A stretch of DNA of 41,172 nt from a virus, in the IMG/VR virus record IMGVR_UViG_3300042934_000521, positions 1 through 41,172 of that record; one strand, given 5' to 3'. Of the stretch, positions 2,651-41,172 are shown one piece after another. Made by a program: the position numbers and the translations under genes. Under the pieces are notes generated by a model. The model worked only from the letters and a program-made list of their open reading frames with translations. It did not search any database and was not told the DNA's origin. Each line of letters starts with the position of its first letter. Position 1 is the first letter of the stretch.

Positions 2651-4213
2651 ATGGCCACATTGCAGCCTGCAAAGTACGGCAAGGTGGTAGGGCGACTATT
2701 GGCAGTCGTCGCAGACGGACCCGACGAGGACGAATATCCAATCTCGGGCGGATTCCCGGATGCCGTACCAGTGCAAGGCACTGTCACGTTCACGCCACGT
2801 GCGACACAGATCCTTGTGCCCCTGGCTACACCTGCGCCGGTGACCGCCTTTCCGACTCCGATCACAGTTCAGTTGGACCAGAACGGATTTCTGACCCACA
2901 ACGGCAAGAAGGGCGTGTTCCTTCTCTGCCCCTCGGAGACGACGAATCCGCCGGCATTCACCTACTCGGTGAGCTACAACCTCACCCTCGATGGCACAGT
3001 TGTCAGTTCGACGAAGTTCGACCTGGAGATGGTCGAATACGTCCCGGGCCCGAACCCCTCTGACCCTGACGCCGGATCCACTGCGGTCGACCTGACCCTC
3101 GTCACGCCGGTCTACCCGACGCCGGGAACGCCGGTCGTACGCGGACCCAAGGGCGACAGTTGGCTGGACGTCCGCCTCTCCAGCGACGGTCTCGCGCTGG
3201 TGTTCCAGCTGCAGACCGAGACTGCCATCGTCGACGACGTCGTCACGATCCCAGCGCTCGCAGACCTCAGTGCAGCAGTCGATGCGTCGGAGGACGCGCG
3301 CGACGCAGCTGGAGGATTCGCAAGTCTTGCTTCGGGTCACGCGTCCGATGCCGAGGACTTCAAAGATGCAGCGGGCGGTTCGGCGGGTGCTGCAGCATTG
3401 TCTGCGGCAGCGGCTCACGGCTCGGAAGTAGCGGCGCTCGGTCACGAAGAACAGGCTGAATACTGGGCGGGCCAAGCCGAAGACGCAGTGGCCGGGGGAG
3501 TGCCTGACGCTACGACCGCCACCAAGGGAAAGCTCAAACTCGCGGGCGATCTCGGCGGGACCGCAGACTTGCCAACCGTTCCAGGCTTGGCAGACAAGTC
3601 GAATGTCGGTCACACACACGCGATCGCCGACGTCTCCGGACTTAGTGGGGCACTTTCGGGTAAGTCTCCTACGGGTCACACTCATGTCGCAGCGGACATC
3701 TCGGATTCGACGACAGTCGGACGAAACGTCGTCAGAGCCGCCGATGCCGCTGCAGCGCGCGCGGCCATCGGAGCGGGCACCTCGAGCCTGACACTCGGAA
3801 CGACCGGGTCCACTGCAGCTGCGGGCAATGATTCACGTCTCGCGGATACTCGGACGCCGACGGCGGGGACGTCTCCGTATGACATCACATACCTGGCGCA
3901 GTCGGGCATCCGTGCGACAGGCCTCGGCGAGGTGCCCGCAGGAATCAAATTGCGACGCGCGGTCACGTTCTCGGAAGTCCTCTTCCATTGCGAGACCGCG
4001 GATGCCTCAGGAAACCTTGTGGCCGAGATCCGAAAAAACGGTGCCACGGTTGCAGGATCATCGACCACGATTGCTGCAGCGAACCAAGTTGCTGGTGGTA
4101 CGTCGACCGGCACGTGGGCATTCGCAGCTGGAGACTTCCTGACCATCTTCGTCACCGGCGTCGGAACCACGCCAGGCAAGGGTTTGACGGCCGAGCTGAA
4201 GGGGCTTGCGTAA
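2651..4213 (+). CDS. Tail-fibre-like minor tail protein (520 aa) located downstream of the lysis cassette
   Basis: AGGAG lies 6 nt upstream of the ATG. Two GHTH (HxH) motifs are present (SNVGHTHAIADVSG, SPTGHTHVAADISD). Ala/Gly-rich central stalk and a beta-rich C-terminal domain. Confidence 0.65.
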   Translation: MATLQPAKYGKVVGRLLAVVADGPDEDEYPISGGFPDAVPVQGTVTFTPRATQILVPLATPAPVTAFPTPITVQLDQNGFLTHNGKKGVFLLCPSETTNPPAFTYSVSYNLTLDGTVVSSTKFDLEMVEYVPGPNPSDPDAGSTAVDLTLVTPVYPTPGTPVVRGPKGDSWLDVRLSSDGLALVFQLQTETAIVDDVVTIPALADLSAAVDASEDARDAAGGFASLASGHASDAEDFKDAAGGSAGAAALSAAAAHGSEVAALGHEEQAEYWAGQAEDAVAGGVPDATTATKGKLKLAGDLGGTADLPTVPGLADKSNVGHTHAIADVSGLSGALSGKSPTGHTHVAADISDSTTVGRNVVRAADAAAARAAIGAGTSSLTLGTTGSTAAAGNDSRLADTRTPTAGTSPYDITYLAQSGIRATGLGEVPAGIKLRRAVTFSEVLFHCETADASGNLVAEIRKNGATVAGSSTTIAAANQVAGGTSTGTWAFAAGDFLTIFVTGVGTTPGKGLTAELKGLA

Positions 4214-4632
4214 TGCCCCACATATTCGTTCGCGCCGGTAGCCGTTTCAGCCAAGTTGGGATGACGAAGAACGGCGACCAGCAGTTAGCGTCAGGCAGCA
4301 CATGGGTGCCGATCGCTGCGTGGACTGCGGACGGCAGCTCGACCGTCATTGGCAATGCCCTCCAAGTCAAGGGCTCTGGCACTGCCACGATCGAGGTCGG
4401 TTCCGCCTGGACAGTTCTCGGAACGGCGAACAAGGACTGGCGCGTGCTCAAGAACGGCGTCGTCGTGTGGACGAAGGGTGCGTCGACCGGTCAGACGTTC
4501 TCGCATTCGTTCTCCCTTGCCGTCGTGGACGGAGACCTTCTCACCTGCGAGGGTTGGAACAACTCTGGTGTCGCCGACAACCGAACCGTCGCTTCGGGTG
4601 CCGGAACCTACCTGCGCGTTATCCCTGCGTGA
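4213..4632 (+). CDS. Hypothetical beta-rich protein (139 aa) coupled to the tail-fibre-like gene
   Basis: TAATG overlap at 4211-4215. Internal start of track ORF 3988..4632. High GC3. Confidence 0.55.
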   Translation: MPHIFVRAGSRFSQVGMTKNGDQQLASGSTWVPIAAWTADGSSTVIGNALQVKGSGTATIEVGSAWTVLGTANKDWRVLKNGVVVWTKGASTGQTFSHSFSLAVVDGDLLTCEGWNNSGVADNRTVASGAGTYLRVIPA

Positions 4633-5395: not shown

Positions 5396-5424
5396 TTCTT
5401 GACCATCTTTAAGGATGCTAGAAT
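5396..5424 (+). promoter_or_regulatory. Promoter of the 54-aa HTH gene, with a related palindrome in the spacer
   Basis: TTCTTG - 17 nt - TGcTAGAAT (extended -10 at 5416-5424). The spacer holds ATCTTTAAGGAT (5405-5416, 10/12 palindromic). Confidence 0.6.
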
Positions 5425-5451
5425 GAGGGGTACCCGAACCAAGGAGAGACC

Positions 5452-5616
5452 GTGATCCGCTTCATGTCGCGCGGCGAAATCGCCGACTACCTCGGCGTCA
5501 CCCTCGCCACCGTCAAGCAGTACAAGACGTTCCCACCGCCCGACGCGATGATCGGCCGCAACCAAGGCTGGACAAAAGAAACCGTCGACGAGTGGGTCAA
5601 GTCCCGCAAGACGTGA
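5452..5616 (+). CDS. Unlisted excisionase/AlpA/MerR-family HTH DNA-binding protein (54 aa)
   Basis: GTG 5452 lies 5 nt after AAGGAG (alternative ATG 5464). SRGEIADYLGVTLATVKQYK...GWTKETVDEWV matches the Xis-type HTH pattern. Below the track cutoff. Confidence 0.65.
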   Translation: MIRFMSRGEIADYLGVTLATVKQYKTFPPPDAMIGRNQGWTKETVDEWVKSRKT

Positions 5617-5626
5617 AATCAACGAA

Positions 5627-5661
5627 AACGCCCCCACCTCACAGTGGGGGCGTTCTTTGTT
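5627..5661. terminator. Bidirectional intrinsic terminator
   Basis: AACGCCCCCAC (5627-5637) pairs with GTGGGGGCGTT (5644-5654). An A-run lies upstream and TTCTTTGTT downstream. It sits between convergent genes. Confidence 0.8.
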
Positions 5662-5665
5662 CGGC

Positions 5666-6277
5666 TCAGTTGGTCGTGATGTTCACGACGCACTGATCGA
5701 CCGCCTGCACTCGCGCGTCGCCAGCGGAGATCTTCAAGGGTGCATCGCTGGCCTTGGTCCAGATCGTCCCGTTGCGGGCGCCGCCAGAAGACGCGTACAC
5801 AAGGTTGTCCTTCACGACCCAAACGTCGGATCGATTCTTGACTTTGCCGGTGCCGTCGACTGTCGTCGCGCCGTAGAACGTCAAGTTGCCATCGTTGATC
5901 ACCGTTCCATTGGTCAACTCATAGCCGTCTGTCGAGAGGCCTGAACTCACCAGGAATGTCAGCTCGTCACTTGCGGGGGCGCATCGCGGGTCGGAAGTCT
6001 TCGCCGCGGCCGCGGCGGGTGTCGACGGCTTGGGGGTAGTCGGCGGAACTGTCGAGGTCGGCATAGGCGCCACCGTCGTAGTTGTTGTCGCGACAGCAGT
6101 GGTTGTTGAACTCGGCGCCGCGCTAGCGCTAGCCACGGCCTTGGTCGGTTCATCCTTCTTGTCTTCGCCGAAGATGGCGCCGATTGCAATCAGAGCGACG
6201 AGAACGGCAACAGTAGCGCCAAGGATTAGCTGCCACTTGGGACGTTTCTTCTCTTTGGGGTCGATCGGTTCAGTCAT
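5666..6277 (-). CDS. Membrane-anchored protein with a Pro/Thr/Ser-rich linker and a ~110-aa extracytoplasmic domain (203 aa)
   Basis: Track ORF. Has N-terminal KKRPKW, TM helix LILGATVAVLVALIAIGAIF, then a PT-rich linker. The C-domain carries two Cys. Confidence 0.7.
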   Translation of the reverse strand: MTEPIDPKEKKRPKWQLILGATVAVLVALIAIGAIFGEDKKDEPTKAVASASAAPSSTTTAVATTTTTVAPMPTSTVPPTTPKPSTPAAAAAKTSDPRCAPASDELTFLVSSGLSTDGYELTNGTVINDGNLTFYGATTVDGTGKVKNRSDVWVVKDNLVYASSGGARNGTIWTKASDAPLKISAGDARVQAVDQCVVNITTN

Positions 6278-6290
6278 GGTGGTATCAAAC

Positions 6291-6336
6291 CAGACCGGTC
6301 TGTCGCATTGATCGGAACCATGGCGAGATGTGTCAA
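6291..6336 (-). promoter_or_regulatory. Autonomous promoter for 5666..6277, with a palindrome at the predicted +1
   Basis: Minus strand reads TTGACA (6336-6331) - 18 nt - ATCAAT (6312-6307). The perfect 12-bp palindrome CAGACCGGTCTG lies at 6291-6302. Confidence 0.5.
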
Positions 6337-6376
6337 CGAGGGACAGAAGACGTGCCCGAGGTGAAGGCTTGCCTGC

Positions 6377-6832
6377 TCACGTGTTTCTCTTCGTTGAGGG
6401 CCAGATCTCATGTTTCGGATCCCACCATAGGGCGTAGAAATCAGGCCCGCCATCGGGAAGGAACCCGTAGAGCCGACGTTCACCCGAGATTCTTAGTCGA
6501 GCAATTTCTGTTGCATCGTCGAGATCTATTTCCACCAGCCGGTCCCGGGCTGACTTGTTTGGCAGTTTGGCTACCGGGTATTTTTTGCCCTCCTCACTTC
6601 CGGGGGCAAACAGATCTGAGCACTGCATTGTCTCGAGGGATGAAATGCGAGCGAGCAAATCCTGAAGGTGTGCAGCCGTAATTTCGCTCAGACACCAGGG
6701 GCCCTTTACGTCGAGCCGTCCCAGGCGGATACGAAGTAACCCTTCGCCAACGACCGGCCGGAAGTCCTTCGGGGGAGCGATGTACTTCGGAATCGCCGAA
6801 GCAGGTTTCTGCTTCGGAATTTTACGGCCCAC
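6377..6832 (-). CDS. Unknown 151-aa protein, candidate toxin partner of the upstream Panacea-domain gene
   Basis: GTG start lies 6 nt after the upstream TAG. No family was recognised. The C-terminus RLRISGERRLYGFLPDGGPDFYALWWDPKHEIWP loosely resembles RelE/ParE/Gp49-type cores. Confidence 0.6.
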   Translation of the reverse strand: MGRKIPKQKPASAIPKYIAPPKDFRPVVGEGLLRIRLGRLDVKGPWCLSEITAAHLQDLLARISSLETMQCSDLFAPGSEEGKKYPVAKLPNKSARDRLVEIDLDDATEIARLRISGERRLYGFLPDGGPDFYALWWDPKHEIWPSTKRNT

Positions 6833-6838
6833 TGCCGC

Positions 6839-7291
6839 CTACTGGGCGGTCTCGCGAGACATTTCCTCGTAGAACTCCAACATGGTTCCAATGTCGATTA
6901 CTGCATTGCAGCGCTGCCCCTCAGGAATCCCGTGGCGCGCCTCCTGCCACGGACGTTCGTTGTGGGTCAAGTTACTGAGCTGATGCGCAGTCATTCCACC
7001 GTAAGCATCGACAACCGCCAACACCGTGCTTTTCTCCGTGTCGGTCAATAGCGCCGGTGTTGCATCTGGGAAGGAGTTCGGTTCGATCTGGAATTGCCCG
7101 CGATGCGCGCGGTAAAGGGCCGGTATTACCGGTCCGTTTGCCCAGGCCTCGATCTCTGACTGAAAAAGGAGTTCGCCTTCGAAGACTAGGTGCCACGCCT
7201 GGGAGTAGTAGGTCAACTTCTGGAGCTTCATGGCGGACATGCCGCCCTTGTTGTCCACGATGAACCGTGCGACATCAATGACTCGAGCCAT
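6839..7291 (-). CDS. Panacea-domain (DUF4065 / SocA-GepA-like) protein, putative antitoxin (150 aa)
   Basis: GGGGAGG RBS is present. The motif MKLQKLTYYSQAWHLVFEGELLFQSEIEAWANGPVIPALY is the family hallmark as I know it. Confidence 0.75.
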   Translation of the reverse strand: MARVIDVARFIVDNKGGMSAMKLQKLTYYSQAWHLVFEGELLFQSEIEAWANGPVIPALYRAHRGQFQIEPNSFPDATPALLTDTEKSTVLAVVDAYGGMTAHQLSNLTHNERPWQEARHGIPEGQRCNAVIDIGTMLEFYEEMSRETAQ

Positions 7292-7306
7292 GACTACCTC
7301 CCCAAA

Positions 7307-7341
7307 TTAATCCACAAACGATCCACAGGTTTATCCACAGG
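7307..7341. repeat. Phased array of DnaA-box-like 9-11-mers (TTAATCCACAA, GATCCACAGG, TTTATCCACAGG); a further copy at 7450-7460
   Basis: Read directly from the sequence. Unit spacing is ~11-12 bp. The array lies 16-50 nt upstream of the panA-like start codon. Confidence 0.7.
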
Positions 7342-7365
7342 ACGGTTTGATTTATCTCAGCCTAG

Positions 7366-7377
7366 TGTATATACACC
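7366..7377. promoter_or_regulatory. Perfect 12-bp palindrome GTGTATATACAC (operator or -10 candidate)
   Basis: Read directly. AT-rich core in a GC-rich intergenic region upstream of the panA-like operon. Confidence 0.4.
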
Positions 7378-7594
7378 CTACGACCTAACCGGCTGGCCGG
7401 ATGCGTTTCAAGTGCATCCTCGCACGTCACTTGCCATTTCACGGCAGAGTTATCCACAGGCTGTCCGTCCAATCGGCCGAACAGGATCGAGGTGTGCATA
7501 GCGAAATTGCGAGGCCCGGCCGGTCTTCCCTTACCTTCCGGACCTCGCGGGATCGAAGCTACCACTCATCGAACAGGTGTGCGAATCTTTAGGT

Positions 7595-7798
7595 ATGCCG
7601 TCGACTGAGCGATCCCCGCAACGCTGCCCGAACGGGCACTCGCTGGCGGCGAACACGTGCCTCGTCGGGTGGGAAGTTTGCGGCTGTGCGACCGCCCACA
7701 ACGGTGGCCACCGGACGCACTACTGCCGAAGGTGTGGTGAGACGATCCGGACGCCCGAATGCTCCGGCGCAGAACCGCAGAAGTCCCGGTGGCACTAA
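7595..7798 (+). CDS. Small zinc-ribbon protein (67 aa; alternative GTG start at 7577)
   Basis: CPNGH...C.C....GGH..HYCRRCG....PEC pattern. GC3 ~80%. The RBS is weak. Confidence 0.55.
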   Translation: MPSTERSPQRCPNGHSLAANTCLVGWEVCGCATAHNGGHRTHYCRRCGETIRTPECSGAEPQKSRWH

Positions 7799-7912
7799 GG
7801 CGTGAGCCGTGAGTGTCAATTGCCGAGCGTTGATTGCCGTGAGTCAACTCGTCGACATTGACTCCGAACGTGTGTGCGAATTTCTGTCGGTGGCTCGGCG
7901 CAATATCTCGGC

Positions 7913-8302
7913 ATGAACTCACCATTCCTCCGCACGCGCTTCCTTAGCAACTACCCGTTTGCGGAACTTTGTAGCCGCGGTTGGCAGCTGTCGTCTGTGT
8001 CTGAGCCGAAGGTGCGGAGGCCGGAAATGGGTCCGATTCGCACCGCGAACTTCGCATGGGGAAATGCAAATTTCACCTTTGACATCAACGCACAGGATCA
8101 GATGAGTGAGTTTGCGACCTACGCTCGCGACGAAGACATCACACTTGTCGCGGAGACCGCCGCTGCGGTCGTGGCCCTTGCCGTCAGCCCTCCCCGGATG
8201 TCGGTCGAGCAACTTTGTGAGATCGACGGTGTGGTGGAGTTCGAATCTCGCTGGAACTCTCCAGCGCCGAAGCTGTTCGAGTGGACAGAATACGGACAGT
8301 GA
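7913..8302 (+). CDS. Hypothetical protein (129 aa from ATG 7913; track start GTG 7874)
   Basis: Track ORF with moderate GC3 and no recognisable motif. The antisense ORF 7919..8428 looks like a GC shadow. Confidence 0.45.
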   Translation: MNSPFLRTRFLSNYPFAELCSRGWQLSSVSEPKVRRPEMGPIRTANFAWGNANFTFDINAQDQMSEFATYARDEDITLVAETAAAVVALAVSPPRMSVEQLCEIDGVVEFESRWNSPAPKLFEWTEYGQ

Positions 8303-8402
8303 GGTCATCGAGAGGGTTCGAATGGCATCGAACCTGATGGAATGAATACGCTGGTGATGGGCATTTGTTGACAAGGGAACAGCGCATATGCGGTAGTCCG
8401 AA

Positions 8403-8430
8403 TAGGGTTCGAAACCCTCCGCGCCCACAA
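8403..8430 (+). other. tRNA 3'-end-like segment (T-arm plus acceptor strand): candidate attP common core
   Basis: TAGGG-TTCGAAA-CCCTC then CGCGCCC-A. No matching 5' acceptor strand lies upstream. It sits ~90 bp from the 3' end of int. Confidence 0.55.
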
Positions 8431-8432
8431 AA

Positions 8433-8468
8433 GCCCCTCATCTGCGAGTGCAGGTGAGGGGCTTTTTT
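8433..8468. terminator. Strong intrinsic terminator after the attP core (usable in both directions)
   Basis: GCCCCTCATCTGC pairs with GCAGGTGAGGGGC (one G-T pair) followed by TTTTTT. AAAA lies upstream. Confidence 0.85.
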
Positions 8469-8518
8469 GTGCCGGAAATCAACGTGGACTCAGCGGGAGC
8501 GGACAGTTTTCGGACAGC

Positions 8519-9646
8519 CTACGAATTGATGACGGCCAGTCGAGCCCGGTCCAGCGCGCTCGCGACGGTGTCCAGATCGTCGTCAAACAGTTCTGCGTAC
8601 ACGTCCAAGGTGAGCGCCGCGGACTCGTGACCGAGCATCCTTTGCACAGCCTTCACGTTTGCGCCCGCTGAGATCGCCAGTGACGCCGCGGTGTGCCGAA
8701 GGTCGTGTGGAGTGATCGTCGGGAGCTCTGCAGCCTCTACGGCTCGGATAAACCACCCGCGTGGCGTCTTCGGCCGGCGCATGAAATCGCCGTCCGGTCC
8801 CGAGAAGACCAGCGACTCGCGACCCTTTCCGACGCACTGCTTCGAGAGCTCGTCGACGAGGAATGCGGGGATGGGGATCGAGCGAGGCTTGTTCGACTTC
8901 GGCGTCCCCACGACGATCTCCGATCCGACTTCTACGGCGTTCCGGCTGACGCTCACGCGCCGGCGCAGAAGGTCGAGGTCGCCAACTTGCAGTCCGATAG
9001 CCTCACCCCATCGGAGGCCGCAGTACGCCAGGAACAGGACGAGGGTCGACCATTCCCCGGCACTATCGGCCAGTGAGGCGACTTGAGCGTGTGTCAGATA
9101 GATCTTCCGCTTCGCAACTTTCCGCGGGAGGTTGTCTACATCGCGAGCCTTGTTCGCGAGGATCTTCCGGTCTCGCACCGCCCGGTCGAGCAAACCGGAC
9201 AGAACAGCGTGCGCACGGATCACCGTCGTCGCGCTTGCAGCCTTCTTGATGATCACTTCCGGATTCGTGGGGTCCCTCTGATCGGTGACTAGGTCCGTGA
9301 TCCAGTCCTCGACCATCGTGACTTCGATGTCCGCAATTCGCACGGTGCCCCACTCGGGCTTTACGTGAACCCTCCACGCCGATTCGAGCGGCTTGTAGGC
9401 CGAGGCCTTCAGCTTCGCCTTCTTGGTGTCGAGCCACGGTTGCGCCAAAGATTCGACTGTGAGCTTCCCGTGCTTCGGGTCCACGAACTCGCCGTCGAGC
9501 TTCCTGACCTCGATGCGATTGGCGAAACTCTCGGCCGCAGGCTTGCTTGGGAATCCTGCTTTGGACCCTTGGGAGCCGTCTGGCTTCATGTAGCGAACCT
9601 TGTACCGCAGGCCCGACTTCGTGTCGTAGGACTTGATGGTTGCCAT
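8519..9646 (-). CDS. int: Tyrosine integrase (375 aa)
   Basis: AAGGAG RBS. N-terminal arm-binding-type domain. C-terminal HDLRHTAASLAISAGANVKAVQRMLGHESAALTLDVYAELF catalytic signature. Confidence 0.95.
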   Translation of the reverse strand: MATIKSYDTKSGLRYKVRYMKPDGSQGSKAGFPSKPAAESFANRIEVRKLDGEFVDPKHGKLTVESLAQPWLDTKKAKLKASAYKPLESAWRVHVKPEWGTVRIADIEVTMVEDWITDLVTDQRDPTNPEVIIKKAASATTVIRAHAVLSGLLDRAVRDRKILANKARDVDNLPRKVAKRKIYLTHAQVASLADSAGEWSTLVLFLAYCGLRWGEAIGLQVGDLDLLRRRVSVSRNAVEVGSEIVVGTPKSNKPRSIPIPAFLVDELSKQCVGKGRESLVFSGPDGDFMRRPKTPRGWFIRAVEAAELPTITPHDLRHTAASLAISAGANVKAVQRMLGHESAALTLDVYAELFDDDLDTVASALDRARLAVINS

Positions 9647-40856: not shown

Positions 40857-41172
40857 ATGGCAACTGTCGGTGAATATCTCGCCAATGTGACAATGCGCGG
40901 AGTGGACGACGGCGTCGGCCTGGAAAACACGGTCAACAGCTTCCAGGTCACCCCGCGCGAAGGATTGCTCGAGCTTCGCGCCGGCAATCCTGGCGGACCA
41001 GGGCCGGAAGGTCCGGCCGCCTACCCGTGGAAGTGGCGCGGCGACATCGTCGACCGTGCCGCACTGGACGCATTGCGTCCAACGCTGAACATCGCACACC
41101 GAGGCTTCGCCTACCGGCTCGTCTCCGAGAACTCGGTGATGTACTGGGATGGGGAGTCCTTCTACCCGTTCG
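40857..41172 (+). CDS. Minor tail protein, N-terminal portion (ORF runs off the window end and continues at base 128 via the 127-bp overlap)
   Basis: ATG 40857. No stop through 41172 and in frame with 1..861. Absent from the track because it has no stop. GNPGGPGPEGP tract. Confidence 0.8.
   Translation, partial: MATVGEYLANVTMRGVDDGVGLENTVNSFQVTPREGLLELRAGNPGGPGPEGPAAYPWKWRGDIVDRAALDALRPTLNIAHRGFAYRLVSENSVMYWDGESFYPF
41046..41172. repeat. Terminal direct repeat copy 2 (identical to 1-127)
   Basis: Base-by-base comparison. Confidence 0.95.

Follow-up and report, generated by a model that had tools for sequence, protein, structure and literature searches.

A Panacea-domain gene pair of predicted PanT cluster T1, with a putative RelE-like toxin, on a temperate actinophage genome

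The stretch of viral DNA analysed here, positions 1 to 41,172 of the IMG/VR record IMGVR_UViG_3300042934_000521 (41,172 nucleotides in all, hereafter the window), carries on its minus strand two adjacent genes, designated panA and panT. The pair is an additional, phage-borne member of the predicted PanAT family grouped under PanT cluster T1 by Kurata et al. (2022), and not a new kind of system. It is probably a type II toxin-antitoxin (TA) cassette, in which a Panacea-domain antitoxin, PanA, precedes a putative toxin, PanT, with a predicted RelE-like fold.

The panA-panT pair and its families

The first gene, panA (6839..7291, minus strand), starts with an ATG at 7291 and ends with a TAG stop codon at 6841-6839, encoding a 150-amino acid, stand-alone Panacea-domain (DUF4065/SocA-like) protein, the putative antitoxin. 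A Shine-Dalgarno-like GGGGAGG (7297..7303, minus strand) can be read from the sequence 5 nt upstream of the panA ATG. The second gene, panT (6377..6832, minus strand), starts with a GTG at 6832 and encodes a 151-amino acid putative toxin of the Kurata T1 / phrog_8366 / MAG6450-like family. Only a 6-nt spacer, GCGGCA (6833..6838, minus strand), separates the panA stop TAG from this start. The GTG is backed by an N-terminus (MG..RKIP..IPKY..) that is kept in close homologues, as well as by the source's own gene call, likewise of 151 amino acids, while AGGCGG, lying across the panA stop codon, is a weak Shine-Dalgarno match for panT. This layout suggests translational coupling of the two genes. 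They also share one frame (7291-6832 = 459, divisible by 3), with only TAG GCG GCA between them. Fusion through read-through of the stop codon was considered and dropped, since gaps and frames vary among homologous loci, and the shared frame is probably coincidental.

PanA matches the Pfam family PF13274 (SocA_Panacea) with an E-value of 3.4e-18, scoring 67.1 bits where the gathering cut-off is 25.7, the alignment spanning PanA residues 23-116 and covering the entire 113-position profile. It also matches phrog_1281 (E 6.9e-37) and carries no N-terminal accessory domain, corresponding to the 'noNTD' type of PanA. The score against the NCBIfam SocA equivalog, 49.1 bits, is far under the cut-off of 190 bits. 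A preliminary description of the window, made from its letters, had already recognised the Panacea domain in 6839..7291, which the Pfam search confirms. The coordinates, 6-nt gap, GGGGAGG ribosome-binding site and peptides which it quoted (MKLQKLTYY...PALY, PanA residues 21-60, and RLRISGERRLYGF...HEIWP, PanT residues 112-145) are all present in the sequence.

The same description had found the partner unrecognisable, which is explained by the fact that PanT has no match in Pfam or PADLOC, but which underestimates the protein, as it belongs to a very large family, represented by phrog_8366 and distantly related to the NCBIfam MAG6450_fam. A word-indexed search of 5.8 billion proteins returned 39 PanT homologues, all 'hypothetical', from Nocardia, Rhodococcus, Mycolicibacterium, Thermomonospora and metagenomes. 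A profile search of 1.84 billion cluster representatives (50% identity) gave 2,524 matches at E<=1e-3, of which 1,362 are at E<=1e-10. Scanning one genome per GTDB species yielded 562 loci of the family, the best 80 of which are mostly from Actinomycetota, with others from Longimicrobium, Thiomargarita, Microcoleus and Verrucomicrobia. PanT itself matches phrog_8366, a group of unknown function, at E 1e-3, and so do 101 of 116 diverse family representatives at E<=1e-3, the best at 5.5e-17. The second relationship is looser. The NCBIfam family NF046006 (MAG6450) takes its name from a conserved hypothetical protein of Mycoplasma agalactiae without assigned function; PanT scores 12.4 bits against it (E 0.18), under the curated 40-bit cut-off, while 109 of the 116 representatives match it at E<=0.1 (best 5.1e-8). 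Judged by these scores, PanT is distantly related to MAG6450 and falls outside that family as the curated threshold defines it.

The family has been catalogued before. Dataset S1 of Kurata et al. (2022) (PNAS; PMC8832971) contains 1,268 predicted PanAT pairs, and in its table the tag 'pT1' occurs 217 times and 'pT2' (MqsR) 218 times, which places T1 among the two largest predicted PanT clusters. The dataset gives Chloroflexi, Mollicutes, Firmicutes, Bacteroidetes, Proteobacteria and Actinobacteria as the phyla of T1, and the T1 rows examined are marked as 'noNTD' with the order A|T throughout (PMC8832971). The Mollicutes among these hosts fit the link with MAG6450. For the T. echinospora assembly GCF_900108175.1 one pair is listed, of cluster T1, in A|T order and with a gap of 52 nt (PMC8832971); in the same assembly (locus L002) a Panacea gene at 3418-3948 is followed at 4001-4387, again after 52 nt, by P0034, a homologue of PanT (E 2.5e-22). 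Actinomadura meyerae likewise has a listed T1 pair with a gap of -14 (PMC8832971), and the locus recovered from A. meyerae in the present analysis (L038) has the same gene geometry, including the gap of -14. By assembly and gene geometry in these two genomes, rather than by listed accessions, the PanT family can be identified with cluster T1 of that study. The window PanT is about 40-46% identical to the listed actinomycete T1 members. The pair had at first been put forward as a candidate new module, a view that this earlier listing overturns. A search of one literature library found no later paper characterising the T1 cluster.

The pairing of the two genes is strongly conserved. A PanA homologue lies directly upstream of PanT, on the same strand, at 83 of 87 loci, 82 of them identified by a script combining the A2 toxin hidden Markov model with a jackhmmer profile seeded from the window PanA, and one (L070) by inspection; the 87 loci include a few duplicates, such as the T. 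echinospora locus. The remaining four comprise L081, where a contig end interrupts the locus, the truncated or decayed copies L029 and L042, and L012, with another partner. Six contexts with called genes have a Panacea gene directly upstream in each case, namely a Nocardia prophage beside RusA/HNH genes, the T. echinospora chromosome beside ask/asd, a phage lysis cassette, a contig with Phd/ParE and two contigs with a HEPN gene. In a seventh, a Nocardia prophage, the neighbours of panAT are a serine integrase and an immunity region. Near-obligate, antitoxin-first and closely spaced pairing in unrelated neighbourhoods is the arrangement by which mobile type II TA modules are usually recognised. 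The proposal of a TA-type pair holds in this respect, the bicistron being conserved, mobile and antitoxin-first.

Two of the homologous loci are of separate interest. At L012, from a Pseudonocardiaceae metagenome-assembled genome, a 123-amino acid open reading frame (ORF) at 1975-2346 stands ahead of a full-length PanT homologue, with no PanA there, and contains a minimal-nucleotidyltransferase motif (GSVARGE...SDLDLL); the antitoxin partner may have been exchanged here, as happens in TA networks. At L001, a Nocardia cyriacigeorgica prophage, a gene with an Acb2/Tad1 hairpin domain (5505-5738) is located downstream of the homologous panAT, at a distance of about 1 kb. Acb2/Tad1 is a family of anti-CBASS/anti-Thoeris nucleotide sponges, so that defence-type and counter-defence-type genes occur in one prophage accessory region.

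Predicted fold and conserved residues of PanT

The structure of PanT was predicted with AlphaFold2, using 27 homologues for the whole protein (predicted local distance difference test, pLDDT, 86.6; predicted template modelling score, pTM, 0.75) and 108 homologues for residues 31-151 (pLDDT 94.9, pTM 0.87), with the secondary elements unchanged between the two. Residues 1-30 are modelled as a basic, Pro-rich, disordered tail. The core, residues 31-146, is predicted to form a RelE/HigB/YoeB-like alpha/beta domain with the order beta-alpha-(alpha)-beta-alpha-beta-beta-beta.

Foldseek searches of the PDB with the two models placed RelE/ParE-superfamily toxins in 49/50 and 48/50 of the top places, the rest being Txp40 chains. 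The bulk of the matches belong to the RNase branch, comprising RelE, HigB (P. vulgaris), YoeB and YafQ, in addition to HP0892/0894. The top match is P. horikoshii RelE (1wmi_A), with a probability of 0.85 / 0.94, a target-normalised TM-score of 0.62 / 0.61 and a root-mean-square deviation of 4.1, while T. thermophilus RelE reaches a target-normalised TM-score of 0.67. Given the consistency of this ranking, a RelE-like fold for PanT is well supported, not proven. A faint RelE/ParE impression left by the C-terminal residues of PanT, recorded in the preliminary description, agrees with the AlphaFold2 and Foldseek prediction. Foldseek against the BFVD viral structures returned no credible PanT match.

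Three residues of PanT, R120, D138 and H141, show no variation in two sets of diverse homologues (116 and 108 sequences), in which D41, E67, R98, G117, G123, W136, W137, P139 and P145 are near-invariant. R120 sits in the strand RRLYGF, and D138-x-x-H141 (WWDPxH) comes after the last strand. The catalytic residues of RelE are R61, R81 and Y87 and those of YoeB are E46, R65 and H83; in YoeB, HigB and YafQ the catalytic His is positioned after the last strand. By analogy, R120 and H141 may be conjectured to be counterparts of the RelE/YoeB catalytic residues.

Genomic setting of the cassette

The two ends of the window share an exact 127-bp overlap (1-127 and 41046-41172), which identifies it as a circularly assembled, complete temperate phage genome of ~41,045 bp. 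Its terminase shares 62-63% identity with the terminases of the Gordonia phages Hibiscus, Reyja and Jojo24 and 53% with those encoded by M. abscessus prophages, and the host of this temperate siphophage is probably in the Mycobacteriales. Megablast of the region 5600-7600 against 50,697 phage records gave no match.

Upstream of panA lies a candidate promoter/operator region of the cassette (7304..7460), marked by TGTGGAT(A/T/C) direct repeats resembling DnaA boxes. The repeat TTATCCACA is found in exact form at 7331-7339 and 7450-7458, accompanied by TAATCCACA at 7308-7316 and GATCCACA at 7320-7327. Near panA these repeats are spaced about 11-12 bp, and three of the four box matches in the whole window fall within this 150-bp stretch. 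A 12-bp palindrome, GTGTATATACAC, at about 7366-7377 is followed by TAGGCT, a -10-like hexamer. All of these leader elements are kept in a related metagenome contig (L088) whose PanT is 84% identical, whereas the region upstream of panA in L090 and L001 lacks them.

Downstream, at a distance of 99 nt from panT and co-oriented with it, is a gene for a 203-amino acid Sie-like protein (5666..6277, minus strand), which contains an N-terminal transmembrane segment, a Pro/Thr-rich linker and a C-terminal domain. The protein has no Pfam match and matches phrog_8545, 'superinfection exclusion Sie-like', weakly (E 3.7e-6) and in its N-terminal part only, making it a possible superinfection-exclusion protein. 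Its gene and panAT may be transcribed together, as an accessory cluster expressed in the lysogen. The minus-strand cluster panA-panT-sie-like is closed by a strong, bidirectional, intrinsic-terminator-like hairpin (5625..5656; 14 pairs, 8 of them G-C, and a T-run).

The far side of panA is occupied by an intergenic region of ~580 bp, then two small plus-strand ORFs and a candidate attP. The first ORF (7577-7798, plus strand) encodes a Cys/His-rich protein of 73 amino acids that matches phrog_12017 (E 5.5e-12) and, weakly, a LITAF-like zinc ribbon. The adjoining second ORF (7874-8302, plus strand; 142 amino acids) has no matches. Beyond these, GGGTTCGAAACCCTCCGCGCCCACA, at about 8396-8425, resembles a tRNA T-arm plus 3' acceptor strand, with a terminator hairpin following at about 8430-8470. 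It is a plausible candidate for an attP core targeting a host tRNA gene, and ARAGORN detected no complete tRNA in the window. A tyrosine integrase gene, int (8519..9646, minus strand), lies beside it. The pair had been assigned to an accessory island, and this arrangement, a minus-strand cluster beside attP/int and next to a Sie-like gene, agrees with that assignment. In the integrated prophage the panAT cassette would come to lie at the end opposite int. Temperate actinophages commonly place lysogen-expressed genes at that prophage end.

Proposed role and comparison with known systems

The domain identity of PanA, the conserved pairing, the family membership, the predicted fold class and the conserved residues of PanT are established here, and they form the starting point for a proposed function. 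The pair is probably a PanAT type II TA cassette, carried as an accessory module of a temperate phage, with a PanT of RelE fold that likely cleaves mRNA. PanA, translated first, would bind PanT and inactivate it directly. PanT is proposed to be an endoribonuclease acting on mRNA, most likely in a ribosome-dependent manner, and its release from PanA would lead to translation arrest. In a lysogen, expression of the cassette and of the Sie-like gene would come from the prophage arm adjoining attP, where the cassette may serve as an abortive-infection/exclusion module or as a prophage-addiction module.

Several results weigh against this proposal. The T1 representative of Clostridium cadaveris is toxic in E. 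coli and has the predicted class 'mRNase' (SI Table S1), but its PanA, from the sole T1 pair tested, 'failed to neutralise' the toxin in E. coli (Kurata et al., 2022; PMC8832971). No Foldseek match in the PDB reaches E<=0.001 (best E 0.07-0.08), and the equivalence of R120 and H141 with RelE/YoeB catalytic residues is a conjecture by analogy. Placement of PanT in the RelE/ParE superfamily by sequence was attempted and rejected: Pfam (e.g. PF05016, PF15738, PF06769) gives no match for PanT, nor for sets of 27 and 116 homologues, PDB searches with the 27- and 116-sequence profiles return nothing meaningful, and hhalign of the family profile with four verified YoeB sequences gives a non-significant probability of 0.4%. 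PADLOC-DB v2 has no family matching PanA or PanT at E<=1. A scan of 5400-8000 for sigma-70 consensus promoters gave none, a kind of scan that is uninformative for actinobacterial promoters. Finally, tblastn of PanT against the 50,697 sequenced phages gave no match at E<=0.01, which indicates that close PanT relatives are absent from sequenced phage isolates; distant ones do exist in phages, as evidenced by phrog_8366.

A more far-reaching version of the proposal, which is unlikely, holds that the T1 PanTs are a distinct, sequence-orphan branch of the RelE fold, marked by the beta-alpha insertion and the basic N-terminal tail, that their Panacea partner is a sensor of phage infection rather than a simple plug, and that the whole is a prophage-expressed abortive-infection system of Mycobacteriales phages. 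If true, this would also explain the failed neutralisation by T1 PanA in E. coli. In this view the DnaA-box-like repeats of the leader might couple expression of the cassette to the replication status of the host.

A rather unlikely alternative is that PanA does not sequester PanT at all, but works in the manner of SocA as a proteolytic adaptor (type VI logic), or else as a sensor dependent on a host factor, so that PanT would be controlled via host proteases or a trigger. Panacea is the SocA domain, PanA does match the NCBIfam SocA model below threshold, and the failure of the sole tested T1 PanA was seen in a heterologous host, all of which can be read in this sense, while a sensory role of Panacea has been hypothesised by the NetFlax authors (Ernits et al., 2023; PMC10440598). 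On the other hand, the SocA equivalog score stands at 49 vs 190 bits and PanT is unrelated to SocB. Stable complexes were formed by all five of the PanAT pairs tested (PMC8832971), and stand-alone Panacea antitoxins neutralise their toxins directly (PMC10440598).

Quite unlikely is the possibility that the pair is the same and only the activity differs, with PanT being a ParE-like DNA gyrase poison or another non-nucleolytic protein of RelE fold. The RelE/ParE fold is compatible with both activities (PMC10440598, discussion), and a few ParE-type structures do appear in the Foldseek lists (6n90, PfiT 9w3a and PrpT 7ycs). Against this, the best-ranked and most numerous Foldseek matches are RelE, HigB, YoeB and YafQ of the RNase branch, and the invariant Arg and Asp-x-x-His together with the near-invariant Glu suit acid-base catalysis and are not expected for ParE. 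The label 'mRNase' given to the tested T1 toxin by Kurata et al. (PMC8832971) points in the same direction.

That the pair is neither a TA nor a defence system but a conserved, non-toxic unit, such as a regulator with an RNA-binding protein of mobile elements, is very unlikely: no PanT family member has come through a complete test of toxicity and neutralisation, eight other predicted PanTs are non-toxic in E. coli and PADLOC is silent, but one T1 toxin is toxic in E. coli, the tight antitoxin-first bicistron, patchy cross-phylum spread, prophage/TA-island placement and toxin-type fold amount to a type II TA signature, and the nucleotidyltransferase-like ORF in the place of PanA at L012 resembles partner swapping in TA networks.

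Of the characterised systems, RelE, HigB, YoeB and YafQ are those which the putative toxin resembles in predicted structure. The PanT core would share their topology, which consists of an N-terminal strand, helices that pack on an antiparallel sheet, and a C-terminal strand leading into a short stretch where basic or His residues are conserved. The PanT strand R-L-Y-G-F recalls the R-L-V-Y of RelE and YoeB (HRLVY in YoeB, YRLVY in RelE), a likeness of hhalign register only, which is not significant. PanT differs from these toxins in having no detectable sequence homology with them and in being ~60 residues longer, with an N-terminal tail that is basic and Pro-rich and a beta-alpha insertion at residues about 70-108. 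The antitoxin is likewise different, being Panacea in place of RelB, HigA or YefM.

A further parallel is NetFlax D3, represented by AarT of Acinetobacter guerrae, a translation inhibitor with no HHpred hit and an mRNA-interferase fold, of which a 'Panacea : D3' pair is listed in Actinocorallia herbida (Ernits et al., 2023; PMC10440598). Actinocorallia herbida and the T1-bearing T. echinospora are both Thermomonosporaceae, and D3 may be the PanT family. This is a conjecture. No Actinocorallia or Acinetobacter protein is among the best 120 matches of the PanT profile in the 5.8-billion-protein set, and the NetFlax and Kurata supplementary tables share no accessions and have no rows in common for the T1 list. 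AarT, which is validated, is neutralised by an AAA ATPase and not by PanA (PMC10440598).

SocAB of Caulobacter, a type VI TA system, is related through its antitoxin, SocA being the founding Panacea-domain protein, which PanA matches weakly in NCBIfam. Membership was rejected on the score of 49.1 vs 190 bits and the lack of any SocB-related match for PanT, and the ClpXP-adaptor mechanism of SocA is not implied for PanA. Assignment to a PADLOC-catalogued anti-phage defence system was likewise rejected for want of a match.

The closest system remains PanAT T1. As in that cluster, a stand-alone 'noNTD' Panacea gene comes first and is followed within a few nucleotides by a homologous hypothetical protein of ~150 amino acids, and the window pair has two of the features of PanAT pairs, a PF13274 match above the gathering score and an adjacent partner conserved across diverse contexts. 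The cluster itself is not validated as TA, its sole tested toxin being toxic but un-neutralised, and despite accounting for ~217/1,268 predicted PanAT pairs it has no Pfam family, structure, demonstrated activity or successful neutralisation test. The window pair leaves the current picture of toxin-antitoxin biology unchanged. It is chiefly of use as a tractable representative of a very common, uncharacterised PanT family of the hyperpromiscuous Panacea antitoxin, and as a convenient natural test case both for prophage-encoded defence and for the predicted catalytic set R120, D138 and H141. What distinguishes it from the T1 pairs listed so far is its location, on a complete temperate actinophage genome and next to attP/int.

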